NCBI GenBank assembly: GCA_964363345.1
Contig: CAYIHY010000001.1
Span: 7,483-71,482, forward strand
DNA length: 64,000 bases
Reading direction: 5' to 3'
Source: Candidatus Woesearchaeota archaeon
GTDB taxonomy: Archaea > Nanobdellota > Nanobdellia > Pacearchaeales > GW2011-AR1
The notes below the pieces were generated by a model. That model saw only the letters and a list, made by a program, of their open reading frames with translations, did no database searches and was not told where the DNA came from. The position numbers were made by a program, and so were the translations under genes. Shown piece after piece: positions 15,003 to 57,599 of this stretch. Each line of letters starts with the position of its first letter. Position 1 is the first letter of the stretch.

Positions 15003-15010
15003 AAATAAAA

Positions 15011-17349: not shown

Positions 17350-17365
17350 CACTGTTACATAATCT

Positions 17366-17375
17366 TTTTAAATAA
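17366..17375 (+). promoter_or_regulatory. Archaeal TATA-like box TTTTTAAATA 19-28 bp upstream of the ATG at 17394
   Basis: Suggests the GAPDH-like gene also has its own internal promoter. Confidence 0.3.
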
Positions 17376-17393
17376 TTTTTTGCAATTTTTTAG

Positions 17394-20296: not shown

Positions 20297-20345
20297 AATA
20301 ATCTATTATAAAAAAAGGTTTAAAGATTTTCGGTATGAATAATAT

Positions 20346-38805: not shown

Positions 38806-38861
38806 TACAAATTTAACCTTCATAATCTTTTTATATTCATTTTTAAATAATTTAAGTACAG

Positions 38862-40698: not shown

Positions 40699-40706
40699 AA
40701 AAGAAA

Positions 40707-41201
40707 ATGAGAGATAAAATAAGAACATTAGATGAATTAAAAGAAATAACTTCTAAGTATAAACAAGAATCCAAAAAAATAGGAACAACAAATGGTTATT
40801 TTGATTTGCTTCATATAGGCCACATTTATATGCTTGAGAGTGCTAAATCTTTAACCGACATATTAATTGTTTTAATAAATAGCGATGATTCTACAAAGAA
40901 ATTAAAGGGTTCAAAAAGACCAATAGTCCCAGAAAAAGAAAGAGCAGAGATGCTTTCTTCATTAGAATGTGTAGATTATGTTACAATATTTGATGGAGAT
41001 AACCCTTTAGATTACATACGAGAATTAAAACCTGATATCCACATAAAAGGAGGAATTTTTGAACAGGACAGGATAAAAACAGAAAGAGATTTAATCGAAT
41101 CCTGGGGTGGAAGACATATAACTCTCCCCTTAGTTGAAGGATATTCTACAACCAATCTTATAGATAAAATAATTAAGGCTTATGAAAACAATTCATCATA
41201 A
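40707..41201 (+). CDS. Cytidylyltransferase-family protein, RfaE domain II-like (heptose 1-phosphate adenylyltransferase candidate)
   Basis: IGTTNGYFDLLHIGHIYMLESAKSLTDILIVLINSDDSTKKLKGSKRP; 164 aa. Confidence 0.8.
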   Translation: MRDKIRTLDELKEITSKYKQESKKIGTTNGYFDLLHIGHIYMLESAKSLTDILIVLINSDDSTKKLKGSKRPIVPEKERAEMLSSLECVDYVTIFDGDNPLDYIRELKPDIHIKGGIFEQDRIKTERDLIESWGGRHITLPLVEGYSTTNLIDKIIKAYENNSS

Positions 41202-42350: not shown

Positions 42351-44084
42351 ATGGAAGAAATAAGCGGGGAAATTAAGCCTTCTGCTAATGAAAAAGAGAT
42401 TGAAAAAGGAAAATCAAAAATAAAAAATTTCTTTTTGGGTTGGGTAAAAGATAATTATGATAAAATTTTCATTGGGATTCTAATTCTTGCTTTTATAATT
42501 CGTCTTTGGATTTTTTTCAAAACAATGAATCAGCCATTCTGGTGGGATGAAGCAGATTATCTTTCTGCCGCTAAAAATTGGGGATTAGGATTGGACATTC
42601 GCGATGTTTGGTATTACCGAAGAGGCTTTTTATTCCCTTTAATTGGAGCATTGATATTCCGATTGGGGCTGGGAGAGATTGGAATGAGATTTTTAGTTGT
42701 TCTTTTCTCAACAGGGATAGTTGCAGTTTCATATTTTATAATTTCAAAGATGTTCAATAAAAAACTCGCTTTGATTACAAGCCTAGTTCTAAGTTTATCT
42801 TGGATATTATTATTTTTTACAGGAAGAGTTCTGACTGATATTCCTGCCGCATTTTTTGCCTTATTGTCTCTTTTGTTTTTCTGGAAAGGCTATGTATTAA
42901 AAGAAGGAAATAAATTTCTTTACCTATTCGGTTTATTTCTGGCACTCGCAGTATTAACAAGAATGCAGTCTTTTATGTTCATTCCCCCATTTTTAATTTT
43001 TATTTTAATTCGAGAAAAATCAAAAATATTCAAAAATAAACATCTGTGGATTACGTTAGGAATATTTTTATTATTACTTGTTCCCCAATTTGTTTTATAT
43101 TCTATGCATTATGGTAATGCTTTTAACGATTTAGCTGCCCATTATCTAGGAATCGGCGCCTCATCTAATTCAACTTATGCTGGAGACCAAAGAGCATTTT
43201 CCTTAGCAACTTTTAATTATTTTGCAAATCTCCCTTACATGCTTTCCACAATCATTTTTGGCCTATTAATAATCGGGGCGATATATTTCTTTACAGATTT
43301 ATTCATCGGCATTGATAAAATTTTCAAAAATGAAATCCTCCAAAAAAAATTATTTGTCTTAATGTGGGTTCTTTCCTTATTTTTAATTATGGGTTATATC
43401 GGTTCAGTTTCTTATGTAGAACAGAGGTATATCACTGCAGGATTGCCATTTTTATTCATGATTGCAGTTTTCCCAATTATTTTTGTTAGTGACTTTTTAA
43501 TGAAACAGAATAAACTAAAAAAAATAATTCCCGGAATTCTTTTTATTGTTTTGATTGCTTTGATGATTCCGAATTTGATATTATCAAATTCTCTTTTGAA
43601 TCAGCAGGCAGACTCATATTCGCAGGTTAAAAAAGTTGGGGAGCTTATGAAATCAGATTCTAATACTCGGGATATAATTATGTCGACCTCTCTTCCCCAA
43701 ATAACTTATTATTCTGAACGTTCAACGTATCCCTATGATATCCAACATGATGGTGTCGCTAAAGGGGATAAGTCCCTATTAAACTATAGCGATGGACAGA
43801 AAGGATTTGAAGAATTCTTGAAGAATAAACAACCTAAGTATTTGATGGCTTCTGTTTTTGAAACTGATCCAGACTGGATTTTAAAAAAAGGTACTTATAA
43901 CGAGGATAACTATATTATCTTACCCTTTTTTAATTCATCAATGTCTTATAACTCCCAAGGACAGATAACTTCGTTAGACTTAAATCAAGAAGTAAAAAAA
44001 GATGGTATGACTCTAACCTTATTCTATCCTAAGACTTCCGGGCAGATTAATGGAATATTTATTTACAAAGTGGAATATTCTTAA
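42351..44084 (+). CDS. GT-C-fold membrane glycosyltransferase of the GT39/GT83 type (PMT/ArnT-like dolichyl- or undecaprenyl-phosphate-sugar-dependent transferase) with a C-terminal soluble domain
   Basis: N-terminal FWWDEADYLSAAKNWGLGLDIR (the extracytoplasmic D-E loop motif of PMT/ArnT); GRVLTDIPAAFFALLSLLFFWKGY; >10 TM helices; 577 aa. Confidence 0.55.
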   Translation: MEEISGEIKPSANEKEIEKGKSKIKNFFLGWVKDNYDKIFIGILILAFIIRLWIFFKTMNQPFWWDEADYLSAAKNWGLGLDIRDVWYYRRGFLFPLIGALIFRLGLGEIGMRFLVVLFSTGIVAVSYFIISKMFNKKLALITSLVLSLSWILLFFTGRVLTDIPAAFFALLSLLFFWKGYVLKEGNKFLYLFGLFLALAVLTRMQSFMFIPPFLIFILIREKSKIFKNKHLWITLGIFLLLLVPQFVLYSMHYGNAFNDLAAHYLGIGASSNSTYAGDQRAFSLATFNYFANLPYMLSTIIFGLLIIGAIYFFTDLFIGIDKIFKNEILQKKLFVLMWVLSLFLIMGYIGSVSYVEQRYITAGLPFLFMIAVFPIIFVSDFLMKQNKLKKIIPGILFIVLIALMIPNLILSNSLLNQQADSYSQVKKVGELMKSDSNTRDIIMSTSLPQITYYSERSTYPYDIQHDGVAKGDKSLLNYSDGQKGFEEFLKNKQPKYLMASVFETDPDWILKKGTYNEDNYIILPFFNSSMSYNSQGQITSLDLNQEVKKDGMTLTLFYPKTSGQINGIFIYKVEYS

Positions 44085-44610
44085 TCTTTTTTGGTCCAAG
44101 TAAAAATATTTTTGTGACTGTAAAAAAATTAACTTTCTTTTTTACCTCAAAATTTTCTTTTAAGATTTTTAGAATGTCTTCATAAGAAGTTATGTGCTCT
44201 TTAGGAACTTCTGTTTTCCCGACGAGTTTTCTCACTTTTCTTGAAATAAAATTTCCGGTAGGAATTGAAACAACTAACTGGAAGTTATCATTCATTTCCT
44301 TAAAATTGTTTATAGTCCTCCTTATCTCTGAAGGGAGAATATGTTCAAATACATCAAGACAGAAAATTTTAGTGGGTTTTAATGTTCTGTAATCTTTAAT
44401 AAAAGTTTTATCTGGATTTATATCATATCCGATTATGTTAAATCCCTTAAGTTTTTTTTCAAGCCATCCTGCTCCGCAGCCAAAATCAAGAATTATATCT
44501 TCTTTTTTTAAATTAGCGATTTTTATGGAAGCATCAATCTTTCTTTTAAAATAAGTTCGTGTCAAAAAATTCTTGTTTTCATATGTATTTTCTAAAAGAT
44601 TATTTTCCAT
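44059..44610 (-). CDS. Class I SAM-dependent methyltransferase
   Basis: ILDFGCGAGWLEKKL (motif I); 183 aa. Confidence 0.6.
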   Translation of the reverse strand: MENNLLENTYENKNFLTRTYFKRKIDASIKIANLKKEDIILDFGCGAGWLEKKLKGFNIIGYDINPDKTFIKDYRTLKPTKIFCLDVFEHILPSEIRRTINNFKEMNDNFQLVVSIPTGNFISRKVRKLVGKTEVPKEHITSYEDILKILKENFEVKKKVNFFTVTKIFLLGPKKIKNIPLCK

Positions 44611-45481
44611 TTTCGTTTTTCTTATTTTTTATTTCTAAAAATATTTTATGCAACTCTTCAACTTTAAGATTCTTTTTAATTCCTTCTCTGTTTAATAAAT
44701 AAATCGCTTTCATTTCTTTGTCTTTCCCGTCATATCCATGCATGGCTTTGACAGGATTTTTCCCCTGCCAATAATTGGGGAGTATTAAGACCCCAGAATT
44801 TGCGAGAAAAATATGCTCCCCATACTTTTTATCTTTCCATTCAATCCATTTTCCGTCTCTGGAATCAAATTGTGGTTTTTGTCCCCAATACCTTGCCATA
44901 TCCGAATCAATAAAACAATTATCTGTTTTTGGGACAGAAATATTTTTTTTAATGTCTATCATCCCATGGTCAGAAAGGATTATATCAAACTTCATCCTTA
45001 AAATCTTTTCATCAACTTTTTTTATTGCGGATATTATTTCTTTGCTTTTCGTCCCATATTTGTGCCCGACAATATCTAAGTCCTGAATATAAAAATATTC
45101 AACTCCTTTAATTTTGTAAAATGGCTCATTAACTGAAAAATCAAATTTCCACAATTCTTTCAGAGGGATATTCTCGGTTCTGAATAATTCATATCTTCTG
45201 ACAAATCGAGGGAAATTAATCATGGAATCAACAATAAATCTTCCAACCTTTCCAAATTTTTCCAGAAATAAAAAATGTTTAATAAATTTTAAAGAAGAAT
45301 TTTCCTTCTTGTAAATCAAAGCAAGTTTGTCTGAACTTCCTTTAAAAAAAATTTCCATTCCCCCTTCATGCCCCGTTGGCATTTCCAGTTCCCCCCATTG
45401 GAATTTTTTTGTCAACGAAGAAAGATAAGGTGCATACTCAAGATATTCTGGCTTGAATGCATCTATCATGACTACCTTCAT
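44600..45481 (-). CDS. Alkaline-phosphatase-superfamily metalloenzyme (nucleotide pyrophosphatase/phosphodiesterase- or phosphomutase-like)
   Basis: N-terminal MKVVMIDAFKPEYLEY (compare the V.IDALRPDYL of AP-superfamily enzymes) and ILSDHGM (DHG metal motif). Confidence 0.4.
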   Translation of the reverse strand: MKVVMIDAFKPEYLEYAPYLSSLTKKFQWGELEMPTGHEGGMEIFFKGSSDKLALIYKKENSSLKFIKHFLFLEKFGKVGRFIVDSMINFPRFVRRYELFRTENIPLKELWKFDFSVNEPFYKIKGVEYFYIQDLDIVGHKYGTKSKEIISAIKKVDEKILRMKFDIILSDHGMIDIKKNISVPKTDNCFIDSDMARYWGQKPQFDSRDGKWIEWKDKKYGEHIFLANSGVLILPNYWQGKNPVKAMHGYDGKDKEMKAIYLLNREGIKKNLKVEELHKIFLEIKNKKNENGK

Positions 45482-45484
45482 TTT

Positions 45485-46927
45485 TTACTTAAATTTTTCA
45501 AGATTATATTTATTTACCGTAAATCTGAATGCATTGTCTATCTCTAAGTCATATTTTCTTTTGTAATAAGCAAAAAATAACCCCAGATCAAACAAGAACC
45601 TAAACGGATTCATTTTTAATCCCTCAAATAGAACTTTTTTTATCTGATAAATTCTGACTTTATTTACCACTTTCTTTATATCTTTCATCTTTACATATTT
45701 TGTTCTGGAAACAGGGGAAGTGAACATAAGATGAGAATCTTTGAAACCTTTCCCCTCAATTAAATTTTCTTTTTCACAGATTTCTTTTATTTCTGTTGCG
45801 GGGAGAGGCATTAATATTGGGAAAAGTGTATAGTTTGCATTTATCTTCATAGCCATTTTGTAACTTTCATTCATTGTTTTCGTAGTTTCATAAGGGGCTC
45901 CGACGATAAATTGCACTCTTAAATGCAAGCCGTATTTTTTTATTATTTTAACCGCATTGTAAATTTGTTCTTCGCTCATTTCTCTTTTGTACAGCTTATT
46001 TCTGATTTCATCATTTCCCGCTTCAACCCCCATACGGACTTCATAACATCCTGCATCTTTCATAGCCTTTATTATTTCATCTGTAACTAAATTTGCTCTT
46101 ACATTAACATTCCATCTTAATTTTTTGTCAAATCCCTTTTCTTTAAATCTTTTGCAGAAATCAAGGGCAAATTTTTTGTCAAGAATAAAAGTATCATCAT
46201 AAAAAAATAAATATCTCATTCCAATAGGATAATATTGTTTTATTCTTAATTCTATTTCTTTTATAATGCTTTCAACACTTCTGATTCGAACATATTTTCC
46301 CTCAAGTTTTTTCCTTATTGCATGATTGCTGCAATAAGTGCAGTTGTAGGGGCATCCTCTCGAGCCCATAATTGGAAGATGATCATTGTTTATTAAAAAA
46401 TATTTTTTTAAATCGTAATCTTCAAAATCAGGAAAAGGAAGCTCATCTAGTTCTTCAATCAATCTTAAATTTGGATTTTTGATAATTTCTCCATTTCCTT
46501 TTTTATACCAAATCCCCCTTACTTTTTTGCAATCTAATTTTTTATCAAGCAAATCTTTCAATACATATTCTCCTTCGCAGGTGCAGACAATATCAACCTC
46601 TTTATTTTTTATTGTTTCTTCGGGCATTAATATTGCATGTACTCCGCCGAAAATTATTTTTATATTATAATGTTTTTTTATAAATTGCGCCATTTTTAAT
46701 GCCTGACTGTAATCAAAACTCATCACAGAAAATCCAATCAAATCTGGTTTAAATTTTTCTATCTTCCTCTTGAGATACATTTCCCAATCTTTTTTATGGA
46801 AAATAAAATCAGCTATCTCTGCTTTATGTTCGGTTTTATTATTTACAAAAGATTTCAAAGTAGCTAAAGCCATGCTGGGCATTAAAGCATACCCTTCTAT
46901 GTTTGGTTCTACTAATAATACTTTCAT
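45485..46927 (-). CDS. Cobalamin-binding radical SAM protein (class B)
   Basis: MKVLLVEPNIEGYALMPSMALATLKSF B12-type N-terminal domain; GSRGCPYNCTYCSN CxxxCxxC; 480 aa. Confidence 0.7.
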   Translation of the reverse strand: MKVLLVEPNIEGYALMPSMALATLKSFVNNKTEHKAEIADFIFHKKDWEMYLKRKIEKFKPDLIGFSVMSFDYSQALKMAQFIKKHYNIKIIFGGVHAILMPEETIKNKEVDIVCTCEGEYVLKDLLDKKLDCKKVRGIWYKKGNGEIIKNPNLRLIEELDELPFPDFEDYDLKKYFLINNDHLPIMGSRGCPYNCTYCSNHAIRKKLEGKYVRIRSVESIIKEIELRIKQYYPIGMRYLFFYDDTFILDKKFALDFCKRFKEKGFDKKLRWNVNVRANLVTDEIIKAMKDAGCYEVRMGVEAGNDEIRNKLYKREMSEEQIYNAVKIIKKYGLHLRVQFIVGAPYETTKTMNESYKMAMKINANYTLFPILMPLPATEIKEICEKENLIEGKGFKDSHLMFTSPVSRTKYVKMKDIKKVVNKVRIYQIKKVLFEGLKMNPFRFLFDLGLFFAYYKRKYDLEIDNAFRFTVNKYNLEKFK

Positions 46928-48318
46928 TTTTTGTCTAATCCCAAAAAAGCAATCCCCGCATTTAGATATATTTTAAATTTTTCAAGGTCTTTAATATTTT
47001 TCAATGCCTTAAGAATTATTTTTGGTCTGAAATAAAATTCCCGATAAGCTTTTTTTTGCATTTCCAAAAGCATTTTTCCGTCAAGATTTCCATGCTTGAA
47101 TATCACATGCCCATAAGCGATATAATCTCGGTAACTTTTTGGGTATATTTCTCCCTCTTCTTTTATTATTTTCCAATAATCTGTATTCGGAAAAGGAATT
47201 GTTATATGAAATGTTGCAGTATCCAAATCAAGGGATTTTGCAAAATTTATTGTGTCTTTCATAGTTTTTTCATCTTCCCCAAAATTTCCAAACATAAATA
47301 ATCCTCGCGTTTCAATTCCCGCTTCTTTGCACCATTTTACCGCAGTTCTGACTTTTTCTAAATCAATACTCTTCTTCATTTTTTTCAAAATCTCTTCATT
47401 TCCGGATTCTATTCCCAAGGAGACCATGTAGCATCCCGCATTTTTCATTTTTCTAAGTAATTCAGGATTTATTCGGTCTACTCTTATTCCGTTAGAGCAC
47501 CTCCAGCTCATTTTTTTGTTTAATCCTTTTTCTATCATCAAATTGCAGAATTTTTCAACACGGTCTATAAAAAGAGTAAAATTGTCGTCGACAAAATCCC
47601 AGTCTCTTGCACCTCTTTTGTAAATTTCTTCAACTTCTGCAATAATACTTTCCGGGCTTCTGAATCGGAATTTTCTGCCGTGAACTAAATGGTCTGCGCA
47701 GAAAAGACATTGATACGGACATCCCCTTGAGCTTAAAATATAATCACTCGGTTTTTGTTTTGAACCCGCACTAAAATATTTATCCATTGGCAATAATTCT
47801 CTTGCAGGAAAAGGAAGTTCATCCAATTTTTCATTTAGTTCTCTTTCTGTATTGTGAACTATTTTTCCATTTTTTCTGTAAGATAAACCTTTAATCTTTG
47901 AAATATTTTCTCCAAGAACAAATTCTAACATCGCAAATTCCCCCTCTCCTCTTACAAGATAATCAAATCTTTCAAATTTTTCTAAAGTTTCCTGGGGCAT
48001 AGAACTTGCATGAATCCCCCCGATAATAACTTTAATTTCTTTTTTGCACAGCCTTGCCAGTTCATGCGCTTCTTCGATCAGAGAAGTAGTTGAAGTAATA
48101 CCAACAATATTCGGAGAATAATTTTCAATTTCTTTTTCTATCTGAGAATGAGTTAAATCAAGTGCATTCGCTTCTAATATTTTAACTTCGACATTATTTT
48201 TTTTCAAAACTGCTGCAATATATGCTAGCCCGAGGGGGGGAAAAATTGGAGTTATTTCCTTTTTCTTGGCATAAGCATAAATTCTCCGATAATTCGGCTG
48301 TATCAATAATACTTTCAT
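46924..48318 (-). CDS. Cobalamin-binding radical SAM protein (class B), in tandem with 45485..46927
   Basis: MKVLLIQPN...PPLGLAYIAAVLKKNNVEVKILEANAL; SSRGCPYQCLFCAD; 464 aa; 4-nt overlap with the downstream paralog. Confidence 0.7.
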   Translation of the reverse strand: MKVLLIQPNYRRIYAYAKKKEITPIFPPLGLAYIAAVLKKNNVEVKILEANALDLTHSQIEKEIENYSPNIVGITSTTSLIEEAHELARLCKKEIKVIIGGIHASSMPQETLEKFERFDYLVRGEGEFAMLEFVLGENISKIKGLSYRKNGKIVHNTERELNEKLDELPFPARELLPMDKYFSAGSKQKPSDYILSSRGCPYQCLFCADHLVHGRKFRFRSPESIIAEVEEIYKRGARDWDFVDDNFTLFIDRVEKFCNLMIEKGLNKKMSWRCSNGIRVDRINPELLRKMKNAGCYMVSLGIESGNEEILKKMKKSIDLEKVRTAVKWCKEAGIETRGLFMFGNFGEDEKTMKDTINFAKSLDLDTATFHITIPFPNTDYWKIIKEEGEIYPKSYRDYIAYGHVIFKHGNLDGKMLLEMQKKAYREFYFRPKIILKALKNIKDLEKFKIYLNAGIAFLGLDKK

Positions 48319-48367
48319 TTTACCTTAGAAATCTCTAAATAATGACATTAATAAATATTATCCTTGT

Positions 48368-49528
48368 TCAAACCAGCTTTTGCAGGTAATATATAGAATA
48401 CAATTTGAGTATTCTGTCTTTTAGAGGCTTTATTTTGTTGGTTAATTTTTTTAGATATTTTAAGGATTCCTCTTCTTCCCCCAAGGAATAAAGAATCAGG
48501 GATAGTGCAATAGTTATTCCAGCATCTCTCCATCTCATCAGACTCTTCAGCAAAAATTCTTTTTTTCTCAATCCTTCTAAAAAAAATCGAATATTCAAAT
48601 AATATTGCGCAGGAAAGAAAAATTTGCCCCCAAGATAATCATTAAAATAAACATAAGGCAATTTTTTGTAAGTTTCTCTGCATATAATCTTCCAGTCATC
48701 TGATTTTATCTCGAGCTGTTCTTTAAGGATTTTTTTCAATCCCCATTCAACCCATTTTTTTGATTCATTAAAAAAAGAGTCAACATTTTTTATTATGTAT
48801 CCATCATACAATTTTGCTTTTGTAGCTTCACTTAGAAATTTTTTTAATTCTTCGGGAAAATCAAGAGAGTAGAAAACTTTTTCTCTTTCTTCTGCTTTTG
48901 ATAAATACTTCCCCCCAAGAATAAGCAATGCAGAGCATAAATCAACAAAACCCTTGATTGCATAAATTGATTTAATTTTTTCTGAATTTCCCTCGGCAAT
49001 TGCAAAATGGTCAAATTTGTTAAATAATAATCGTATTGCATCAGATTTTGAAATCTTTGTAGGGGGGATTTTTTCTAGAATATTTTCATCTCCATAAATT
49101 ACTAAACTTGTTCTTAAATCAAAAGTTCTCTGGGTGGGATATAATTTACCCAACTCATTGCTAAGAATGCAGTGCAGGTCAACATGAAAAAATTTATTTT
49201 CATCATAAGTTTTTTCGAAATTTTCAACAATTTCAAGTCCGCCTCTCCCAATTGCAGCAGAGCATTTCTCTCCAAGTTTTTCTAACAATCGTCCGCTTGC
49301 TTTTTTTTTTGTTATCAAATAAAGATCATAATCATTTAATGGAGTTATTTTCCCTTTAATTTTTTTAAAGCTCCCATTTCCGTGCCCAAATCCTCCAAAA
49401 AAAACTATTGCAATCGGATTAATCTCTTTCAAAACTATTTTCTTTATAATTTCTAAATCTCTTTCAATTTTTTTATCAGCTTCTTTTGATGTGGTGTATT
49501 TCATTTTTTTTATCCAATAAAATAACAA
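48368..49528 (-). CDS. Predicted nucleotidyltransferase (Pol-beta-superfamily minimal NTase fold) with a C-terminal helical domain
   Basis: FFGGFGHGNGSF-x12-NDYDLYLI fits hG[GS]-x9-13-DhD; the start is probably the internal Met (MKYTTSK). Confidence 0.35.
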   Translation of the reverse strand: MLFYWIKKMKYTTSKEADKKIERDLEIIKKIVLKEINPIAIVFFGGFGHGNGSFKKIKGKITPLNDYDLYLITKKKASGRLLEKLGEKCSAAIGRGGLEIVENFEKTYDENKFFHVDLHCILSNELGKLYPTQRTFDLRTSLVIYGDENILEKIPPTKISKSDAIRLLFNKFDHFAIAEGNSEKIKSIYAIKGFVDLCSALLILGGKYLSKAEEREKVFYSLDFPEELKKFLSEATKAKLYDGYIIKNVDSFFNESKKWVEWGLKKILKEQLEIKSDDWKIICRETYKKLPYVYFNDYLGGKFFFPAQYYLNIRFFLEGLRKKEFLLKSLMRWRDAGITIALSLILYSLGEEEESLKYLKKLTNKIKPLKDRILKLYSIYYLQKLV

Positions 49529-50450
49529 TTATCGCGATTATCGAAGGAATTACACTTGCAATAATTATGCTCAAAATTGACATTGAAAATACCTTTGTTG
49601 CCCCAATTCCCAGTACTCCAAATAGTCCAATCAAAGTTAATTCCCTTGTTCCAAAGCCGTTTATGGTTATTGGAATTTGGGCAATTAATGTTGCTATCGG
49701 CAATATTATAAGGAAATATTTGAAACTTATATTTATTCCTAAAGCTAAACCAATAAGATAGATATTAACATAATTAACAACCCAAGTCATCAAATTAACG
49801 ATGAGAGCCATGAATAAAAACGGCACAGAAGGAAGGTCTTCATAAAATGAATTAAATAAAATTCTGCTTTTTTCTTTTAATCTTTGAGGAATAAATTTTT
49901 TATATACAAATCCCAGCAAAAATCTGCTGCTGTCTTTATTGTAAAAAACAATAAATAATAACATTAACAAAATAAATGTTCCAATTAAAATATACCATTC
50001 TCCGTTGGGAATTATTTTTTTATATATTGTAAATCCAAATACAATCAACAGGATGAATAATGAACAAAAATCAAGAACTTTATCTATAACAAAATTGCTT
50101 ACCCCCTTTCCTGTTTCTGCTCCTTTCTTTTTTAGATAATCTGTCCGGATAATTGTTCCTATTTTTCCAGGAGTCACAAACCCATAAAAATTTGAAATAA
50201 AATTTATCTTAAAAGCTTCGTTGAATGAGATGTTTATTTTTTGCCTTTTCGCAAGGATAAACCATTTTAATGTCTGGAAAATTAAAAAAATTAAAACAAA
50301 AACAAAAGAAAGAGCAATATAACTCCAATTTAGATTATTAAACTCTGAAAATATTTTTGTAACATCTAATTTTACAAGAAGGTAAATAAATATAGCAACT
50401 CCGACGATTGGAAGATATTTTTTAATTGTTCCCCATTTCATAAAAATCAA
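49476..50450 (-). CDS. Integral membrane protein, UPF0104 / LPG-synthase-TM-like (flippase-like domain often paired with GT2 in archaeal and bacterial glycan loci)
   Basis: 324 aa, ~8 TM helices, short loops, GxxxG-rich; located next to the radical SAM and GT2 genes. Confidence 0.4.
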   Translation of the reverse strand: MIFMKWGTIKKYLPIVGVAIFIYLLVKLDVTKIFSEFNNLNWSYIALSFVFVLIFLIFQTLKWFILAKRQKINISFNEAFKINFISNFYGFVTPGKIGTIIRTDYLKKKGAETGKGVSNFVIDKVLDFCSLFILLIVFGFTIYKKIIPNGEWYILIGTFILLMLLFIVFYNKDSSRFLLGFVYKKFIPQRLKEKSRILFNSFYEDLPSVPFLFMALIVNLMTWVVNYVNIYLIGLALGINISFKYFLIILPIATLIAQIPITINGFGTRELTLIGLFGVLGIGATKVFSMSILSIIIASVIPSIIAIIVILLDKKNEIHHIKRS

Positions 50451-50485
50451 TGATTTTTTGTCAATAAAAACCTTTTGTATTATTC

Positions 50486-51943
50486 TTACTTCTTCACAAA
50501 ATCTTTCAAATGGCCGAAAACGGCTTTGACTCCTCTCAAATTAAATTTGAAATCATTCCAGGTTCTGATATTTTTCATTCTTTGAAAAATATAATTTGGA
50601 GTTAAAAAAATTGTATAAATTTTTCCGCAGATTCCTGCAATTTCCTGGGCATTTCCGTTTTCAATTTTCAAAACCGGTTCTCTCATGTCATATCTTTCAT
50701 ATTCAAGAGGATTAAACAAAAACCAATTATTTTCTTTTGCTTCTTTCCATAACGGAGTTCCAGGATATGGAACAAGAACTGTTGCCTGAAGTAAATCCGC
50801 TTTTCCGCTTTGCATTAATTTTCTTGCAAGTTTAAAAGTGTACATAGCATCTTCTTTTGTTTCCCAGGGGTAGCCAACAATCATAGTAAGATGAACTGTA
50901 AGTCCTGCCTTTTTTGCCATTCTGCATCCGTTTAAAATATCTTCAACCTTTATCCCCTTGTTTAATCTGTCAAGTGTTTTTTGATTCGCACTTTCTAATC
51001 CGAATTTTAATAATCTAAACCCTGCCTTTTTCATCAAAATAAATTCTTCTTGATTCAGAGCCCCGAAACGCATGTTGCATGAATATTTTATTTTTTTGTT
51101 GTATCCTCGTTTAATTAATCCTTCGCATAAATCTTTCAGCCATTTTCCCGTCATCAAAGTTCCGGAGTCATCAAAAATTTCCTTAACCTTATATTTTTCA
51201 ATTAGCATTCCTATTTCATTTAAAACATTTTCAACACTTCTTACTCTAAATCTCGGAAACAGCGTTGGCCACGCGCAGAATTTGCATTTTCCCCACCAGC
51301 AGTCTCGGCCAGACATTATATAAAAAAATGGATTTCCCTGAAGGTTATACTCTTTTTCATAAAGCTTCCATTTAGTTAATTCTCTGTCAATAAATGGAGC
51401 TTCATCAAGTCCGTGCCTCAAAGCAAATTCCCCCGAATTGATTATTTTTCTATTTTTTTTGTAATAAACTCCTGCAGGACATTTTTTTATTTTTCCAGAA
51501 ATCCAATCACATAATTCCATCAAACTAAAATCAAAATCTCCACCCCTTATAACAAAATCAGCTTCAGAATTTTTCAAGCTTTCTTCTGGAAATGAAGTAA
51601 CATGATCCCCCAAAAGAGCAATTTTCATTTCAGGAAATTTTTTCTTTAGTTCGTTGATAATTTTCCAATGCTGTTTTATTACCGGAGTTTTTGTTTCAAA
51701 TGCAAATAAATTAGGTTTTTCATTTTCTATCTTTTTGATAAATTCATTCCACTGAATTTTTTCTGCAATTGAATCGACCCAGAAAACTTCATGCCCCTCT
51801 TTTTTCAATAAAGTCGCTGCACTTCCAAGAATAACAGGAAATAAATAACTTGGATTTGAAAACCACTGAAATTGCCTGTTTTGGCTCAGCAACGCAATTC
51901 CCTTTTCAGAGTTTGTCGGAGGATAACCAATAAATATCTTCAT
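50486..51943 (-). CDS. Cobalamin-binding radical SAM-like protein with an atypical CX4CX2C cluster motif
   Basis: N-terminal B12-type Rossmann region; SGRDCWWGKCKFCAW (C-x4-C-x2-C rather than C-x3-C-x2-C); 485 aa. Confidence 0.55.
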   Translation of the reverse strand: MKIFIGYPPTNSEKGIALLSQNRQFQWFSNPSYLFPVILGSAATLLKKEGHEVFWVDSIAEKIQWNEFIKKIENEKPNLFAFETKTPVIKQHWKIINELKKKFPEMKIALLGDHVTSFPEESLKNSEADFVIRGGDFDFSLMELCDWISGKIKKCPAGVYYKKNRKIINSGEFALRHGLDEAPFIDRELTKWKLYEKEYNLQGNPFFYIMSGRDCWWGKCKFCAWPTLFPRFRVRSVENVLNEIGMLIEKYKVKEIFDDSGTLMTGKWLKDLCEGLIKRGYNKKIKYSCNMRFGALNQEEFILMKKAGFRLLKFGLESANQKTLDRLNKGIKVEDILNGCRMAKKAGLTVHLTMIVGYPWETKEDAMYTFKLARKLMQSGKADLLQATVLVPYPGTPLWKEAKENNWFLFNPLEYERYDMREPVLKIENGNAQEIAGICGKIYTIFLTPNYIFQRMKNIRTWNDFKFNLRGVKAVFGHLKDFVKK

Positions 51944-51984
51944 AAAGTTAGTGGATTTTCAGGTTATTTAAATTTTATTAAGCT

Positions 51985-52767
51985 CTACTTAATTTTAAGT
52001 TGTTGTGGAAGTTTTCTATAAAATCTTACAAAAAAATTGAAAGGAGAGTGAATTAGTCTAAGTCTTATCGCAGACAGAAACATCATTATTGGGGTTTTTT
52101 TAAGATTGACTTTTGAGCCAACCTCGTCGTGCCAGACTGTCGGGATAGATTTTATTTTTGCATGACTTTCTTTTTTAAGACAATACAACAACGCAATGTC
52201 AAATCCCCAATTGCTTGTAGCGAGTTTAGATATATTTTTTTCAAGAACTTCTCTTTTGAAAACTTTTGCTCCGCATTGAGTATCTCTGTAAGGAAATAAA
52301 AAAAGGCTTCTCACAATCCAATTATATCCTCTGCTGACGAATCTCCTAAACCCGCTTTGTTTCGGAGTTATAACGCTTCTTTTATTCCATCTGTCTGCAA
52401 TTGTTCCATCATACGCATTTATTTTCCTGATTAAATCATAATAAGCTTCTGGCGGAGTTGACATGTCTCCGTCGACAAAACCAATAAGTTTATTCTTCTC
52501 ATTTTTTAAAGCATCTTTAAATCCCTCGGTTATTGCAAAACCCTTCCCTCCTTTTTCAAATCGGATAAACCTAATTTCAGAATACTTCTTTGCAAATTTT
52601 TTAACCACTTCTTCAGTGTTATCTTTGGTATTATTTATAACAATTAAAATTTCAAAATCGCTAATTTCCCGACCCTTCTTTTTCTTTTCAAAAAAGGCCC
52701 CATAATTTTCCAAAATTTTGCCTATCCTTTTTTCTTCATTATACGCAGGAATTACTATCGAAATCAC
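51985..52767 (-). CDS. GT2 glycosyltransferase, Dpm1/GtrB-like (dolichyl-phosphate sugar synthase candidate)
   Basis: MISIVIPAYNEEKRIGKIL N-terminus; FVDGDMS (DxD); 260 aa with a C-terminal hydrophobic tail. Confidence 0.7.
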   Translation of the reverse strand: MISIVIPAYNEEKRIGKILENYGAFFEKKKKGREISDFEILIVINNTKDNTEEVVKKFAKKYSEIRFIRFEKGGKGFAITEGFKDALKNEKNKLIGFVDGDMSTPPEAYYDLIRKINAYDGTIADRWNKRSVITPKQSGFRRFVSRGYNWIVRSLFLFPYRDTQCGAKVFKREVLEKNISKLATSNWGFDIALLYCLKKESHAKIKSIPTVWHDEVGSKVNLKKTPIMMFLSAIRLRLIHSPFNFFVRFYRKLPQQLKIK

Positions 52768-52825
52768 AATTTAACTCCACTTATTCTGCTTAAAAGATTA
52801 ATTATTTCAGAATATATACATATTT

Positions 52826-53851
52826 TTAGAAATTGGGGATAGTTTGAAGCCCAATTAATTCTTTCCAGAAAATAACTAGCCCCAATATTATTATTAAAAT
52901 CTGGAACGCGTTAATCAAGTAAACCACATCTGTTTCATGAACTTTTTTAGTTGGTCTTATTTTTTTAAGAATTAAAATAGATAAATGTTCAAGCCCGTAA
53001 ATTTTGTCATAGGGAATTTCCAGGCTTCCATCTTGATTTACTTTAGCAAAACTTTGTTTTTTTAATTTCCCTCTTGATTTCAAAATTGTTTCAATTATAT
53101 ACGGAATAAAAAAGAAAATTGCTATTTTCTCTAGATTCCCTATTATTGCAATTGTTGCAATTAGTGCTCCAACAGAATACGTCAAAATATTTCCTGGAAA
53201 AACTTTTGCAGGATATTTATTAAATATATAAAAAGGAACCAGCGAAGCAACCATGCATAAGCAGATAATACTGAGCCATTTATTTCCCATAAAAAAAGTT
53301 ATTCCCGCAAGAGAAGAAAGAAGTATTATTCCCTGACTTGATTCTAACCCATTATATCCAGCGAGAAAATTAAAAGTTGCAGATGCTCCAACGATTCCAA
53401 TTGGAATTAAAAGAATTGGGTACAGCAATCCGAAATTTATTCCCAAAACATTTGATTCTCCCGCATTTATTACAATCAAAGGAATTGACGCAAAAAAAAG
53501 CAAAATCAATCTTGATCGAATAGATAACCCCCCTTTTTTCCACCCCAGTAAGTCATCAAGAATCCCAATAAATGCAATTACCAATACGACACTTAATAAT
53601 GCAAAAATTGCTATGATATTATCCTGAGATCTGAAATAAAATGTTTTTATCGCAATATAAGTAAATGTTCCGACGATAAAAGCTAAAAATACTGCGACTC
53701 CTCCAGAACCCGCAACTTCTTTGGGATGCTCTGGCTTGTTCATATCTTCCCAAATCAATCCGATCTCTTTTGCTTTTCTAATCCAAAAAGGAATTAAAAA
53801 CAAACACACAAAAAAACTGAGCAGCAATGGAAGAATTAAAATCAGATTCAT
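52826..53851 (-). CDS. aglH: Polyprenyl-phosphate HexNAc-1-phosphate transferase (MraY/WecA/AglH family, glycosyltransferase family 4)
   Basis: ILDDLLGWKKGGLSIRSRL (DDxxG loop); NFLAGYNGLESSQG (the NxxDGxDGL-like motif); ~10 TM helices. Confidence 0.7.
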   Translation of the reverse strand: MNLILILPLLLSFFVCLFLIPFWIRKAKEIGLIWEDMNKPEHPKEVAGSGGVAVFLAFIVGTFTYIAIKTFYFRSQDNIIAIFALLSVVLVIAFIGILDDLLGWKKGGLSIRSRLILLFFASIPLIVINAGESNVLGINFGLLYPILLIPIGIVGASATFNFLAGYNGLESSQGIILLSSLAGITFFMGNKWLSIICLCMVASLVPFYIFNKYPAKVFPGNILTYSVGALIATIAIIGNLEKIAIFFFIPYIIETILKSRGKLKKQSFAKVNQDGSLEIPYDKIYGLEHLSILILKKIRPTKKVHETDVVYLINAFQILIIILGLVIFWKELIGLQTIPNF

Positions 53852-56653
53852 CTAATACACTCCAGGGTTTACGGTTTCTAATTCAGCAGGATATTCTGTA
53901 TCAAGATAAGTTTGATTAAGTTTAATCTCTGTTGGATAAGATATCTCCCAGATTTTAATTGGACCTTGTACTCCCTGGTAATAAACAAAATCTTCAACAT
54001 TCATCCCCTGTTGTTTTAAACTATCCATCAATAAATTTCCTTCGGTATGAACTAATTTAAAATAATTTGAGGGTTCATTAAATAAATATAGTTTTACTAA
54101 TTCTGAATTAACTGTTCTCTCACTCAAATAAAATGCCGCTCCGATTGGATTAATCTTCGTTTTTCCGTCTGAAGATGGACTAATCGATGGGAATATATAA
54201 ATCCCCCCCTCAAATCCCGAATCAAAATTATACAATTTTCCATTTATGTAAATATGTTTCAATGGAAGTTGATGCTGATTCCCATTGTAACTTATGAAAA
54301 CTTTTGGTTGAGAGATTTCATTATTTTTGTTTTCTGAAAAAATAACCCCCATGATTATCGCTTTCCTTTGAGGAAGAAGAATTTCTTTTCCATTATCCAG
54401 AAAAATAAAATCCTGATCAATTGGGGTTCCAACAGGATATACATAATTTGTTCCATTATTTGTTTCACTAATCTGTGTTTCATCTAAGAATATTGTTGGG
54501 ATCCATGAATATCTATCATAGCTTCCATTTGAACCAATACTTGAAAATGCACCATATTTTCCAATATCCGTTGAATCAATTAAAAGATGAGTTCCCTTGT
54601 GGGTATAAAGGAAATCCAAGGCTTCTCTTTCGTTAGTTCCGGTTAAAACGTTTCTCCCCATAAAATAATCCCAGTATCCAATTGCATTTCCGCCATCTAA
54701 TATAGTCGCTCTTTCGCCTATTGATTGCACCCAGTATCCATAATCCCACCAGTGTGCGAATACCGCGGTCGTCGGAGTATTATCTCGTACCCAGGCCATT
54801 GTTTTTTGCCATTGCCATTGATACAATCCGGGAACATAATTTTCCGCAGTATTTTTATCTGTTTGATAATATGTCCAAATAGTAAAAATCGCAGACATTA
54901 AAATCAGAAGAACTAAAATTCCCCCAATCAATTTTTTAAAATCTTCTTTTTCAGAAAGATAATTTTTTATTGTTTTAACTATTAAAAATCCAATAACTAT
55001 CGGACTTACCGCCCCGAGAACCATGATAAGTCTTACTGCGCCTCTCGCCGCCATGATTGTTATTGTTAAGATGATTAAATAAAATATATAAGCAAAATTT
55101 AATTCTGAAAATTCAGCAACTTTTCCTTCTTTATTTTTTTTGTAATACAGCCTAACCAAAGTCCCGATAAAAAATAAAGCCCCCCCAAAATAAACTAGCA
55201 AACTTAGCAGATTATCCCCATTAAGGATACTGCTCGAAGAATATTTGCTGAATATTAAACTACTTAAAAAAATCAGGTAACTTATTATTAAAATTCTTTT
55301 CTCTTTTTTCTCCAAATATTTTACTGCATAGCTAAAAAGAAATACTGCCCCCGCAAAAAATAACCAAAAATAAAGAGGGATATTAAATGCAGAAGGACCA
55401 AAAGAATCCGCCCAATCATTCATAAAATAAGATTGTTTGTTTTCTGCAACGGTTATACTGAATCTCCCTTGACTTATCGGATTGATTGTACTGGAAATAA
55501 CATCTTCAACCATTCTTGGAACAAATGAGATTCCAACTGTAACAGAAGCCAATATCACTAATAATAATCCTCCTAAGATAACCGAACTTATTTGGTGAGG
55601 TAATTTTATCTTGTTGAATTTTTGTTTAATCTTCGAGTCTTTTCCGAATATGATTAAGTCAATTAGTAAGATAAAAAAGACAATAAAACATAATGCCGTT
55701 GAAGTGGATTTAATTAGGTCTATAATATTATATCTTTCTGAGAAAGGAGTTGTGAATGCAATAAACCCGACAATCCAGACCGAAAAATAATAAAATTTAT
55801 TTCTATCGATTCTTCCAAGAATAAATTCTATAAAAACAGTTCCCGCAATAATCACAAATACCAAGTCTCCAAATCCGGAAATTAAACTTAAGATTCCTGT
55901 TGAAATCCCGGCAAGGGTCCCGAATATAAGCCCTCTTTTTAATTTATCTGAAGTAAAGGCTTCAAGGAAAAAATAAAATGCAATGAATATAAAAAAGAAA
56001 GCCGCGGATTCTTTTTCAGGAATTCCTGCAATTGCTCTTGGCAAAAGTGAAGGGACTAAAACGAAAAAAGCAGTTGATATCAATGCGATTACATTAGCTG
56101 TTTTTTTATCTTCTTTATAGAATAATTTCCTTGCAAAAATAAAAAATGCAATTCCAGTCAGAACTGCCATAACTACTGGGAAAATAATTGCAGCATATGT
56201 AACGCTGGCGTTGCTGTTAAAAATAGAAATTAAATGATAAAACCAGCTTATCATATAAGGAAGAAGAATTGTTTCCCCCGAAGGGTCAACCGGAGAACAG
56301 GATGCTCCTGAACAAATCTGCGCTGTTGGGACATATCTCATCAAATCTAATACGAATAATTTTCCGTGTTCTGCAATATATTTTGCCCATCGTAAAAATA
56401 AAAAAGGATCCAAGTCTGGCCCCAAAGTCCAGTTATTTGTGGCAATATCCCACAACCCCGGTTTTCCCGTTGAGGGATTTATTTTCATTGGCAAGATTCT
56501 GATATAAACACTAACAGAAAGTATTACCGCAAGTATAGCATAAATTACTAAATTTGTTTTTTCTTTAAAAAAATGAATTAGATTTTTTTTTCTGTTTTCT
56601 ATCTCTTTGCCGATAGAATCTTCTTTTGAATTATTCATCACTTCCATCCTCAA
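53852..56653 (-). CDS. aglB: Archaeal oligosaccharyltransferase AglB (STT3 family)
   Basis: The WWDYGYW signature (AHWWDYGYWVQSIGERATILDGGNA); 13-TM N-terminal domain with the DxD-type loop (LGPDLDPFLFLRWAKY); large C-terminal periplasmic-type domain; 933 aa. Confidence 0.85.
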   Translation of the reverse strand: MRMEVMNNSKEDSIGKEIENRKKNLIHFFKEKTNLVIYAILAVILSVSVYIRILPMKINPSTGKPGLWDIATNNWTLGPDLDPFLFLRWAKYIAEHGKLFVLDLMRYVPTAQICSGASCSPVDPSGETILLPYMISWFYHLISIFNSNASVTYAAIIFPVVMAVLTGIAFFIFARKLFYKEDKKTANVIALISTAFFVLVPSLLPRAIAGIPEKESAAFFFIFIAFYFFLEAFTSDKLKRGLIFGTLAGISTGILSLISGFGDLVFVIIAGTVFIEFILGRIDRNKFYYFSVWIVGFIAFTTPFSERYNIIDLIKSTSTALCFIVFFILLIDLIIFGKDSKIKQKFNKIKLPHQISSVILGGLLLVILASVTVGISFVPRMVEDVISSTINPISQGRFSITVAENKQSYFMNDWADSFGPSAFNIPLYFWLFFAGAVFLFSYAVKYLEKKEKRILIISYLIFLSSLIFSKYSSSSILNGDNLLSLLVYFGGALFFIGTLVRLYYKKNKEGKVAEFSELNFAYIFYLIILTITIMAARGAVRLIMVLGAVSPIVIGFLIVKTIKNYLSEKEDFKKLIGGILVLLILMSAIFTIWTYYQTDKNTAENYVPGLYQWQWQKTMAWVRDNTPTTAVFAHWWDYGYWVQSIGERATILDGGNAIGYWDYFMGRNVLTGTNEREALDFLYTHKGTHLLIDSTDIGKYGAFSSIGSNGSYDRYSWIPTIFLDETQISETNNGTNYVYPVGTPIDQDFIFLDNGKEILLPQRKAIIMGVIFSENKNNEISQPKVFISYNGNQHQLPLKHIYINGKLYNFDSGFEGGIYIFPSISPSSDGKTKINPIGAAFYLSERTVNSELVKLYLFNEPSNYFKLVHTEGNLLMDSLKQQGMNVEDFVYYQGVQGPIKIWEISYPTEIKLNQTYLDTEYPAELETVNPGVY

Positions 56654-56688
56654 AAATTGGAGTAAAAAACCTATTTAAACATTATGTA

Positions 56689-57549
56689 TTATTTGAACAG
56701 AAGCGGAGTAAAATAAACTTCTATAACTGCTGCACCGACTAAGATTATTGACGCAATTAAGATTAATGCGATTACATTAAGAACAACTTTGACGAATTTT
56801 TTATTTCCAATTCCGTGTCTTATTACTCCGACCCCCAAAATTCCGCCTGCAAGCGCAGTAATGAAATAAGCTGCAATTTCAGGGAATCCATGAATCATAT
56901 ATCTAACTAATCCTAATGGAATCTCGCTGATTTTATAACTTGTGAATATTCCTATCGCCGCAGAGATAACACTTGCATTCCACGCTAAAACAAAAATTGC
57001 TCCTGCTCCGAAAATCAATGAAAAAATTAAAGTAAATATCATCACTCCGAAATTATTTTCTATTATAGAAAAAAATCTTGCCCCATTATTTAATGCGTTT
57101 GTTGATACTACTTGACTAGTGAAAGAATATTGTGCAATGCAATTTTCAACTGCTCCGGGATTATTTATATTGCAATAAGTTTCTATCTGCGCATTTAATA
57201 AATTGGGATCCTGAAGAACCGCATATCCGACGGAAAATGCGACTATAAAACCAAGGAAAAGCCAGAGGAATGCATAAATTGCATCTTTGTGCATTTTCCA
57301 AACTCCTAAAAATCCCTCTGTTTCTTCGTCTTCCATTTCTTCCTGCCTGAAAATAAAATACATAAATGGAATTGAAAACATCACACAAAATAAAACAACC
57401 ATCAGTCCAGAAAATTTCGCAAGGATTGTATCACTCTTAAAAAGAAAATGAACTAACAAAAGTGAAAGCGATGCATACAAAAAACCAATGAAAAACATTT
57501 TCCATGGTCCCTTCTCAGCTCTTTTTGGATTAATCAAAGACTCTAACAT
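56689..57549 (-). CDS. Hypothetical integral membrane protein
   Basis: 286 aa, 6-7 TM helices; immediately upstream of aglB on the same strand. Confidence 0.3.
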   Translation of the reverse strand: MLESLINPKRAEKGPWKMFFIGFLYASLSLLLVHFLFKSDTILAKFSGLMVVLFCVMFSIPFMYFIFRQEEMEDEETEGFLGVWKMHKDAIYAFLWLFLGFIVAFSVGYAVLQDPNLLNAQIETYCNINNPGAVENCIAQYSFTSQVVSTNALNNGARFFSIIENNFGVMIFTLIFSLIFGAGAIFVLAWNASVISAAIGIFTSYKISEIPLGLVRYMIHGFPEIAAYFITALAGGILGVGVIRHGIGNKKFVKVVLNVIALILIASIILVGAAVIEVYFTPLLFK

Positions 57550-57599
57550 ACAATCTTATAGAAAAGAGATTTTTTAAACTTTCATATCTTATTTTCTTA

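Follow-up and report, generated by a model that had tools for sequence, protein, structure and literature searches.

The 64,000-nucleotide (64-kb) stretch of archaeal DNA analysed here (contig CAYIHY010000001.1), referred to as the window, contains an uninterrupted block of 11 open reading frames (ORFs) on the minus strand at 44059-57549, in which genes for the oligosaccharyltransferase AglB and the AglH-like transferase are followed by a cassette encoding three predicted cobalamin (B12)-type radical S-adenosylmethionine (SAM) enzymes, a candidate flippase and putative tailoring enzymes. Exact-sequence matching placed the locus on contigs from Hainich groundwater (0.1-µm filter fraction), and since the nearest public genomes are labelled Nanoarchaeota or Candidatus Pacearchaeota, the source is a low-GC (~31%; 69% A+T), Pacearchaeota-like DPANN archaeon. 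The original prediction for this region had counted thirteen genes in the block, a miscount given that its own list also has 11 entries. It was correct in placing all genes on the minus strand with overlaps or gaps of less than 60 bp, as found at all 10 junctions (from the 44059 end: -11, +3, -4, +49, -53 or -29, +35, +41, +58, 0 and +35 nt), which leaves room for no additional gene. Its family assignments (methyltransferase, alkaline phosphatase (AP)-superfamily enzyme, radical SAM enzymes, nucleotidyltransferase (NTase), UPF0104 protein, GT2, AglH, AglB and a six-transmembrane protein) were likewise all borne out by domain profiles, motifs and nearest structures. The two values at the fifth junction reflect the NTase ORF (48368-49528), for which an ATG start at 49504 is likelier, the overlap with the UPF0104 gene then being 29 rather than 53 nt. 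From the first gene of the block to the convergent gene that closes the island, the features are:

56689..57549, minus strand: SpoIIM-family multi-pass membrane protein (PF01944, 54.9 bits); first gene of the block, fixed core
53852..56653, minus strand: AglB/STT3 oligosaccharyltransferase (PF02516); 933 aa from a TTG start, 928 aa from the ATG used by gene callers
52826..53851, minus strand: AglH-like GT4 polyprenyl-phosphate N-acetylhexosamine-1-phosphate (HexNAc-1-P) transferase (PF00953, 96.2 bits)
51985..52767, minus strand: GT2a, a Dpm1/ArnC/GtrB-type predicted polyprenyl-phosphate sugar synthase (PF00535, 76.4 bits)
50486..51943, minus strand: rS7, a cobalamin-domain radical SAM protein with a CX4CX2C motif (PF02310 and PF04055)
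49476..50450, minus strand: UPF0104/MprF-flippase-domain membrane protein, a predicted lipid-linked-sugar translocase (PF03706, TIGR00374)
48368..49504, minus strand: DPANN-restricted NTase of Pol-beta fold with a HEPN-like helical domain (ANT-like)
46924..48318, minus strand: rSB, a class-B radical SAM protein with a CX3CX2C motif (PF02310, 78.6 bits; PF04055, 95.3 bits)
45485..46927, minus strand: rSA, a class-B radical SAM protein with a CX3CX2C motif, tandem paralogue of rSB (PF02310 and PF04055)
44600..45481, minus strand: cytoplasmic NPP-type AP-superfamily enzyme (PF01663)
44059..44610, minus strand: small class-I SAM-dependent methyltransferase (PF13489, Methyltransf_23, 36.8 bits); last gene of the block
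42351..44084, plus strand: PMT_2 GT-C glycosyltransferase, convergent (PF13231, 56.8 bits; PF02366, 40.2 bits)

The block is probably transcribed as one operon, and the 3' end of the PMT_2 gene overlaps its last gene, that of the methyltransferase, by 26 nt. An AT-rich 50-bp spacer (57550-57599) parts the SpoIIM-like gene from a divergent IF-2B-family gene. No tRNA genes were found in a tRNA scan of the 64-kb window and there is thus no tRNA-flanked island boundary.

The SpoIIM-AglB-AglH genes form a fixed core that hardly varies among relatives. Searching with an alignment of 11 AglB sequences yielded 80 metagenomic loci. In 50 of the 61 AglB-centred loci with enough flank, the SpoIIM gene lies directly upstream of AglB in the same direction, and the AglH gene follows AglB in 29 of 30 loci that extend 8 kb or more downstream, the set also used to sort the downstream cassettes. 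Archaeal SpoIIM homologues have been described as mostly stand-alone genes (Makarova et al., PMC5898192). The AglB protein scores 35.1 bits against PF02516 (cut-off 24.5), and its WWDYGYW motif is invariant, with W635, W636, D637, Y638 and G639 present in all 11 aligned sequences. It also has the DK/MI motif (D696-I-G-K699...I706), in which K699 and I706 are invariant in the same alignment, as is D693. A profile of the family matches STT3A/B, yeast Stt3 and Archaeoglobus fulgidus AglB (E = 1e-16 to 1e-11), and with 67.6 bits against a cut-off of 450 the protein falls outside the archaeosortase-A-associated subfamily TIGR04154. The nearest solved relative of the AglH protein is human DPAGT1 (49.9 bits, against 28.8 bits for MraY).

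Downstream of this core, two main cassette types alternate. Seventeen of the 30 loci encode a Wzx-type flippase and lack UPF0104, rS7 and the NTase, nine encode UPF0104, rS7 and the NTase but not Wzx, one has UPF0104 and the NTase only, and three fit neither type; UPF0104 and rS7 co-occur across these loci (Fisher p = 7e-7, uncorrected for phylogeny). Among 107 loci with AglB or AglH, 39 have UPF0104 only, 38 Wzx only and just two have both; directly after AglH, 31 loci have Wzx and 26 have UPF0104. On a neighbour-joining tree of AglB, loci of one type are intermingled with loci of the other, on which ground we rejected a single lineage-specific insertion of the radical SAM genes. The cassette behind aglB-aglH has therefore been swapped repeatedly, in the manner of serotype-determining glycan loci, with B12-type radical SAM genes being frequent in it but not obligatory. 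In some Wzx-type DPANN loci we also observed a different B12-type radical SAM gene, located after the gene of a membrane GT2 termed c1 (see below; examples at L146:16785-18203, L105:9568-11073 and L091:21814-22728). Its product has the motif C[AVT]FKCGFC (CX3CX2C) and is 26-30% identical to rSB, as if the c1 GT2 had acquired a radical SAM partner twice, independently.

A comparison centred on rS7 separates this protein from its AglB context. Two rS7 peptide motifs were searched against species-representative genomes, the best 80 loci of at least 577 were labelled by tblastn with the window proteins, and their ORFs were clustered; counts are restricted to loci in which 8 kb or more of sequence precedes rS7 (31 archaeal and 23 bacterial). 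The protein was confirmed in at least 577 species genomes, many bacterial phyla among them, and is represented in DPANN by more than 120 clusters (90% level) at 73-90% identity. Median identity to the window protein is 71% for rS7 and 53% for AglB, which is only 42-67% identical among the species-level genomes that keep the gene order. In the archaeal loci AglB and AglH are upstream and co-directional in 23/31 and 27/31 respectively, and UPF0104 (24/31), the NTase (20/31), the AP enzyme (19/31) and the PMT_2 gene (18/31, in each case convergent and closing the block) are common; not one of these six genes is found in any of the 23 bacterial loci. A second B12-type radical SAM gene occurs in 23/31 archaeal and 5/23 bacterial loci, and a GT2 of the type in the window in 29/31 and 14/23. 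The membrane GT2 c1 is shared by both sets (22/31 archaeal, 22/23 bacterial), and the Wzx-type flippase is found in 6/31 archaeal and 17/23 bacterial loci. The comparison with relatives, which the original prediction had named as the check on the linkage of aglB with the radical SAM genes, thus gave a divided answer: the linkage is present in 23/31 archaeal rS7 loci, but 17/30 AglB-centred loci lack rS7 and the 23 bacterial rS7 loci lack AglB, AglH, UPF0104, the NTase and the AP enzyme. Given the Wzx-type AglB loci and the AglB-less bacterial rS7 loci, the radical SAM module is an accessory, exchangeable cassette beside aglB-aglH and is not intrinsic to the AglB pathway.

The bacterial rS7 proteins are 49-64% identical to that of the window and come from Omnitrophota, Dehalococcoidia, Elusimicrobia, Goldiibacteriota, Kiritimatiellae, Desulfosudaceae and others. 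The c1 protein, a 320-aa GT2 with C-terminal membrane helices, is encoded directly upstream of rS7 in 41 loci, where the median distance between the two genes is -4 nt, implying translational coupling; genes for an AglJ/ArnC-like GT2 and a Wzx-type flippase usually come before it. Orthologues of the block GT2 in the bacterial cassettes have AglJ, ArnC and PpgS as best matches, and four bacterial cassettes start with a zinc-ribbon PMT_2 protein that passes the Agl23 model (c30, 298.8 bits against 126). A Pfam census of 144 bacterial neighbour ORFs returned GT2, epimerase/dehydratase, Wzx, GT1, DegT and NHL families; the bacterial rS7 loci are ordinary surface-polysaccharide clusters. The rS7 proteins of Lentisphaerae, Verrucomicrobiota and Kiritimatiellae (L029, L032, L034-L038) are 61-64% identical to the Pacearchaeota protein, and most of those labelled Woesearchaeota (L040-L049) are 56-61% identical, with two loci at 66%; these identities suggest that rS7 may have passed between the domains. 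The neighbours of rS7 in these PVC loci are a GHMP kinase and a GT1, rather than a GT2 and c1.

All three radical SAM proteins of the block consist of an N-terminal PF02310 B12-binding domain followed by a PF04055 radical SAM core, and are therefore predicted to be cobalamin-type (class-B) radical SAM enzymes, although rS7 scores exactly at the PF02310 cut-off (32.1 bits). The cluster motifs of rSA and rSB are of the CX3CX2C type (CPYNCTYC and CPYQCLFC), whereas rS7 has DCWWGKCKFC, a CX4CX2C motif that is invariant in the rS7 family. The three are mutually 28-34% identical; rSA and rSB share 34% identity, the start of the rSA gene overlaps the rSB stop by 4 nt, and rSA is a deeply diverged tandem paralogue of rSB. 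The top NCBIfam match of each is HpnJ (TIGR03471, cut-off 577.6 bits), with 192.6 bits for rS7, 168.9 for rSA and 235.7 for rSB, i.e. about three-fold too low. Orthology to HpnJ is ruled out by this cut-off, by the 26-29% identity to Caballeronia HpnJ (29% for rS7) and by the different cysteine motif of rS7. We also rejected a phosphonate P-methyltransferase function, as matches to PhpK and Sden_1168 (at most 161 bits) always ranked below HpnJ and BchE, and no PEP-mutase-type match was found among the window ORFs scanned. In a sequence search of the PDB, MgmA (9ccb) and AprD4 were nearest at low scores, the peptide methylase MgmA being closest to rS7 and rSB. An AlphaFold2 model of rS7, whose pLDDT is only 68 because the alignment held close relatives only, superposes on TsrM, MgmA, OxsB and AprD4 (TM-score ~0.57-0.60; sequence similarity below 20% in these structural alignments), and a Foldseek search added TokK as a fold match. 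These matches confirm a class-B fold for rS7 and do not point to a particular reaction. The rS7 family has no characterised close relative, MgmA, TsrM, OxsB and AprD4 being the nearest structures. As AprD4 illustrates, a B12-type domain can occur without B12, and we found no gene for cobalamin synthesis or uptake in the 64-kb window.

Three further B12-binding radical SAM proteins are encoded in the window, at 9366-11162(-), 21062-23683(-) and 32187-33725(+), bringing the total to six, and each of the six genes adjoins glycosyltransferase or sugar-modifying genes. The protein encoded at 21062-23683(-) (873 aa) is a DegT/PseC-like sugar aminotransferase fused to a B12-type radical SAM domain, suggesting a radical step on an NDP-aminosugar.

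The GT2 of the block has as its nearest PDB match the dolichyl-phosphate-mannose synthase of Pyrococcus furiosus (5mlz), followed by ArnC and GtrB, and reached no curated NCBIfam equivalog cut-off. The UPF0104 protein is recognised by PF03706 (139 bits against 33.4) and TIGR00374 (114.8 bits against 43.2); a PDB sequence search returned no match for it or for the PMT_2 protein. UPF0104 (arCOG00899) has been predicted to be a flippase in archaeal glycosylation, and its reported neighbourhoods combine either GT2 with PMT/STT3-like genes or a deacetylase with a glycosyltransferase (PMC5898192). Since UPF0104 fills the slot after AglH that is otherwise taken by Wzx, and the two are mutually exclusive, the UPF0104 protein is a candidate translocase of a lipid-linked sugar. 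Many relatives have genes for a GT2 and a PF01522 deacetylase, both on the minus strand, beside UPF0104 and rS7, and the full synthase/deacetylase/flippase trio is found for example in L010, L016, L147 and L166. Just past the PMT_2 gene, some relatives (L008:18853-20786, L020 and L031) encode a SPASM-type radical SAM protein and a GT2 with a GT21-like signature. The window homologue of the latter is 34-44% identical and lies ~7 kb away at 34677-35579; its SPASM radical SAM partner was not found in the window by tblastn.

The three remaining soluble proteins retain the residues expected of active enzymes. The NTase has the hG[GS]x9-13Dh[DE]h motif, the third acidic residue and the NTase fold, which is that of aminoglycoside-modifying enzymes; its PDB sequence match, a de novo TIM barrel, was dismissed as spurious. 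The AP enzyme scores 33.7 bits against PF01663 (Phosphodiest, cut-off 23), and at least 85% of 21 relatives keep its bimetal ligands D7, D136, H140, D171, H172 and H248; of the two nucleophile candidates S62 is conserved and T36 is not. The methyltransferase is 54-81% identical in 12 related archaeal loci. With their catalytic residues intact, the NTase, the NPP-type enzyme and the methyltransferase are plausible agents of phospho-, nucleotidyl- or methyl decoration.

The island and its cassette structure are well supported. We propose, giving the proposal about an even chance, that the block is an aglB-anchored variable glycan island whose cassette tailors a polyprenyl-phosphate-linked sugar that is then flipped by UPF0104 for use by AglB and/or the PMT_2 protein; the substrates, the order of steps, the role of the flippase and the type of reaction we infer. 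AglH would prime dolichyl phosphate with HexNAc-1-P for the AglB glycan, and the Dpm1-like GT2 would place a sugar on polyprenyl phosphate. At the cytoplasmic face, rS7 would then alter the lipid-linked sugar at an unactivated carbon, by C-methylation or by a radical rearrangement such as ring contraction, and rSA and rSB would act alike. The ANT-like NTase, the NPP-type phosphodiesterase and the small methyltransferase could attach a phospho-, nucleotidyl- or methyl group or alter one already present, after which the UPF0104 MprF-type protein, replacing Wzx, would flip the tailored lipid-linked sugar outward. Finally, the sugar would be installed on surface proteins by AglB, which would transfer en bloc onto Asn, by the convergent PMT_2 GT-C enzyme, which would transfer a single sugar, or by both. 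The gene order GT2 - rS7 - UPF0104 fits a sequence of making, modifying and flipping. Candidate substrates of the radical SAM enzymes are the AglB oligosaccharide, a dolichyl-phosphate-monosaccharide for PMT_2, a nucleotide sugar and a membrane-lipid head group, all equally compatible with the data. A more specific version, possible rather than probable, is that rS7 is a cross-domain family that acts on a polyprenyl-phosphate sugar, either by C-methylation or by contracting its ring in an HpnJ/Cds-like manner to give a carbocyclic pseudosugar, with the DPANN product being flipped by UPF0104 and attached by AglB or PMT_2.

Several of these elements have counterparts in known systems, of which HpnI/J/K/L, GpgSDF and AglD/AglS or Agl22/Agl23 are the closest, as functional analogues rather than demonstrated orthologues. 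As in the agl clusters of Haloferax, Methanococcus and Sulfolobus, AglB (with its WWDYG and DK motifs) is encoded beside an AglH-type transferase, GT2s, a methyltransferase and a flippase candidate, and the glycan genes downstream of aglB differ among relatives. Unlike in those clusters, three B12-type radical SAM genes, an ANT-like NTase and an NPP-type enzyme occur here in a conserved cassette, and SpoIIM is fixed upstream of AglB. In the HpnI/K/J system a GT2, a deacetylase and a B12-type radical SAM enzyme turn lipid-bound glucosamine into a cyclitol ether (PMC13459092). Our locus resembles the genes for HpnI/HpnK/HpnJ/HpnL and the calditol synthase Cds in the adjacency of GT2, LPG_synthase_TM and B12-type radical SAM families, and in relatives also in having a deacetylase. 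However, HpnJ has a CX3CX2C motif rather than the CX4CX2C of rS7, there is no hopanoid context here, the deacetylase of the relatives (PF01522) belongs to another family than HpnK, and although the families of HpnI and HpnL are adjacent here, no orthology to them was found at the sequence level by BLAST. GpgSDF, in which a transferase, a deacetylase and a UPF0104 protein make an aminosugar lipid, and HexSDF are similar in encoding a UPF0104 flippase candidate together with the transferase of its presumed cargo, but GpgS is a GT4-family enzyme acting on phosphatidylglycerol, radical SAM, NTase and AP enzymes are absent from these systems, and the trio is incomplete in the window, which has no deacetylase homologue. 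AglD is a GT2-UPF0104 fusion (PMC5898192), and Agl22/Agl23 form a Dol-P-hexose branch which, like AglD/AglS, delivers a single sugar outside the cell (PMC11182771). AglD/AglS (Haloferax), Agl22/Agl23 (Haloarcula), ArnC/ArnT and GtrB/GtrA all bring together a Dpm1/ArnC-like GT2, a translocase and a PMT_2-type GT-C enzyme, but have no tailoring enzymes between synthase and flippase, as are found here. The class-B radical SAM enzymes that act on sugars, GenK, GenD1, OxsB and the B12-less AprD4, have the same architecture as rS7, with a Rossmann/B12 domain at the N-terminus and a radical SAM barrel after it; they belong to antibiotic biosynthesis, whereas rS7 has the CX4CX2C motif and a context of protein or polysaccharide glycosylation.

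A number of observations weigh against tailoring of a lipid-linked sugar for AglB or PMT_2. The rS7 gene is present without AglB in bacteria and in some Woesearchaeota and so is independent of AglB, while neither c1 nor the PF01522 deacetylase of the relatives has a homologue anywhere in the 64-kb window. The PMT_2 protein of the window has no NCBIfam match at E <= 1e-5, Agl23 (TIGR03663, cut-off 126 bits) included, all three radical SAM proteins are far under every curated family cut-off, and their structural neighbours are a mixture of methylases, a ring-contracting enzyme and a diol dehydratase that indicates no single reaction type. The co-variation statistics, that for UPF0104 and rS7 included, correct neither for phylogeny nor for a few near-duplicate loci, and the AglB neighbour-joining tree is without support values. 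The DegT-B12-radical SAM fusion in the window points to nucleotide sugars, and lipid-linked and nucleotide-sugar substrates are not distinguished by the present data.

In an alternative that we consider unlikely, the substrates of the radical SAM enzymes are soluble nucleotide sugars, which would be converted, for example by NDP-hexose C-methylation or deoxygenation, into unusual donors for the neighbouring GT2s, with UPF0104 and AglB handling an ordinary glycan. Besides the DegT fusion, the window encodes an NDP-hexose C-methyltransferase, a GDP-mannose dehydratase and RfaE-like heptose genes; epimerase/dehydratase and DegT genes are abundant around bacterial rS7, and the sugar-modifying AprD4 is among the closest solved structures. 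The radical SAM domain of the fusion is, however, only 24-28% identical to rS7, rSA and rSB. Tight coupling of rS7 to a GT2 would be equally expected of a donor-making enzyme, but the coupling is specifically to a membrane-embedded GT2 and not to nucleotide-sugar enzymes, and the co-variation of rS7 with flippase type would be hard to explain if the donor sugar alone differed. It also seems improbable that the cassette encodes a lipid head-group pathway of the HpnIJKL or GpgSDF/HexSDF type, in which the GT2, B12-type radical SAM and UPF0104 proteins (with the PF01522 deacetylase in relatives) make a modified aminosugar or cyclitol head group that is flipped to the outer leaflet, aglB adjacency reflecting the clustering of envelope genes; in a DPANN cell the membrane lipid concerned may be scavenged from the host. 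All three radical SAM proteins of the block, and none of the other three in the window, have HpnJ as their best curated match (169-236 bits), but rS7 is only 29% identical to HpnJ, with another cluster motif and a score below the cut-off. In a genuine hopanoid locus the order is hpnI (GT2) - LPG_synthase_TM - hpnJ and hpnK is close by, but UPF0104 has no BLAST match to HpnL, and c1 matches HpnI weakly. The GT2, PF01522 deacetylase and UPF0104 of relatives resemble the GpgSDF set, a neighbourhood of deacetylase, glycosyltransferase and UPF0104 was also listed by Makarova et al. (PMC5898192), and the NTase has the fold of aminoglycoside-modifying enzymes. Against this, the window lacks a deacetylase, the Dpm1/ArnC-like GT2 would be expected to use polyprenyl phosphate as acceptor, the bacterial cassette resides in Wzx-type polysaccharide clusters, and linkage to aglB-aglH is kept in 23-27 of 31 archaeal loci.

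It is very improbable that the block is no functional unit at all, i.e. that a compact DPANN genome has packed together unrelated genes and that the radical SAM enzymes modify RNA, a cofactor or a peptide. Short intergenic distances are usual in this genome and the peptide methylase MgmA is the closest solved relative of rS7 and rSB, but the gene order is kept across many species-level genomes although the proteins are only about 50% identical, the presence of rS7 goes with that of UPF0104 and the NTase, and rS7 is tied to GT2 genes in polysaccharide clusters across two domains.

We know of no experimental work on glycosylation in DPANN archaea, whose cell surface mediates attachment to the host. 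The locus predicts a large DPANN clade with surface sugars made by radical, B12-dependent chemistry. Earlier work already covers clusters around aglB, the predicted flippase role of UPF0104 and Dpm1/GT-C branches. In the open-access papers searched we found no radical SAM enzyme in any archaeal glycosylation pathway, a scope that falls short of proof of novelty; the word 'radical' is absent from a 2024 review, and radical SAM and aglB are paired only in an unrelated study of plant-pathogen genomics. In the same literature we found no report of the rS7 family, of the Wzx/UPF0104 alternation after AglH or of a fixed SpoIIM-AglB pair. Should the more specific version of the proposal be correct, rS7 and UPF0104 would be the first radical SAM enzyme and the first lipid-linked-glycan flippase other than Wzx to be assigned to a protein glycosylation pathway, and host-dependent cells would need scavenged B12 to build their envelope; a dependence on scavenged cobalamin would follow from the general proposal too. 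The alternation of Wzx and UPF0104 in one slot offers a testable handle on the identity of the archaeal lipid-linked-glycan flippase, and rS7, being conserved, common to many anaerobic bacterial phyla and coupled to a GT2, is a compact system for finding a new sugar modification.

Upstream of the block, the IF-2B-family gene is divergent from the SpoIIM gene in 28/44 related loci. In the spacer between the two, at a distance of about 21-30 nt from either start codon, lies TTTTTTAAA, which could be a shared archaeal TATA element, although in a genome of 69% A+T such a match is weak evidence. Between the RfaE-like genes and the PMT_2 gene, a 346-aa protein is encoded at 41215-42255(+) that scores 301.9 bits against the 'GSU2086 family' model (cut-off 250), and a 63%-identical copy lies between AglB and AglH in one relative (L160:12797).

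The window contains two further groups of sugar-related genes. In the region 12209-21038, a 3-dehydroquinate-synthase-like domain fused to a glyoxalase/VOC domain (15679-17349) resembles a sugar-phosphate cyclase plus epimerase and is flanked by genes for a CDP-alcohol phosphatidyltransferase, an NTP-transferase, a DUF4147/MOFRL kinase-like protein, an SDR, a GAPDH-like protein, an Asn-synthase-type amidotransferase and a TylF O-methyltransferase, so that a cyclitol or pseudosugar pathway is possible. The region 36838-41201 encodes a kinase and an adenylyltransferase resembling RfaE domains I and II, a HAD phosphatase and a GT9-adenylyltransferase-NUDIX fusion. Heptose-type genes recur beside rS7-like genes elsewhere, as with a GHMP kinase in Kiritimatiellae (L034:1064-2041) and, on a plasmid of Lawsonia intracellularis (L168), SIS and HAD-IIIA genes beside two radical SAM genes and several methyltransferase genes.

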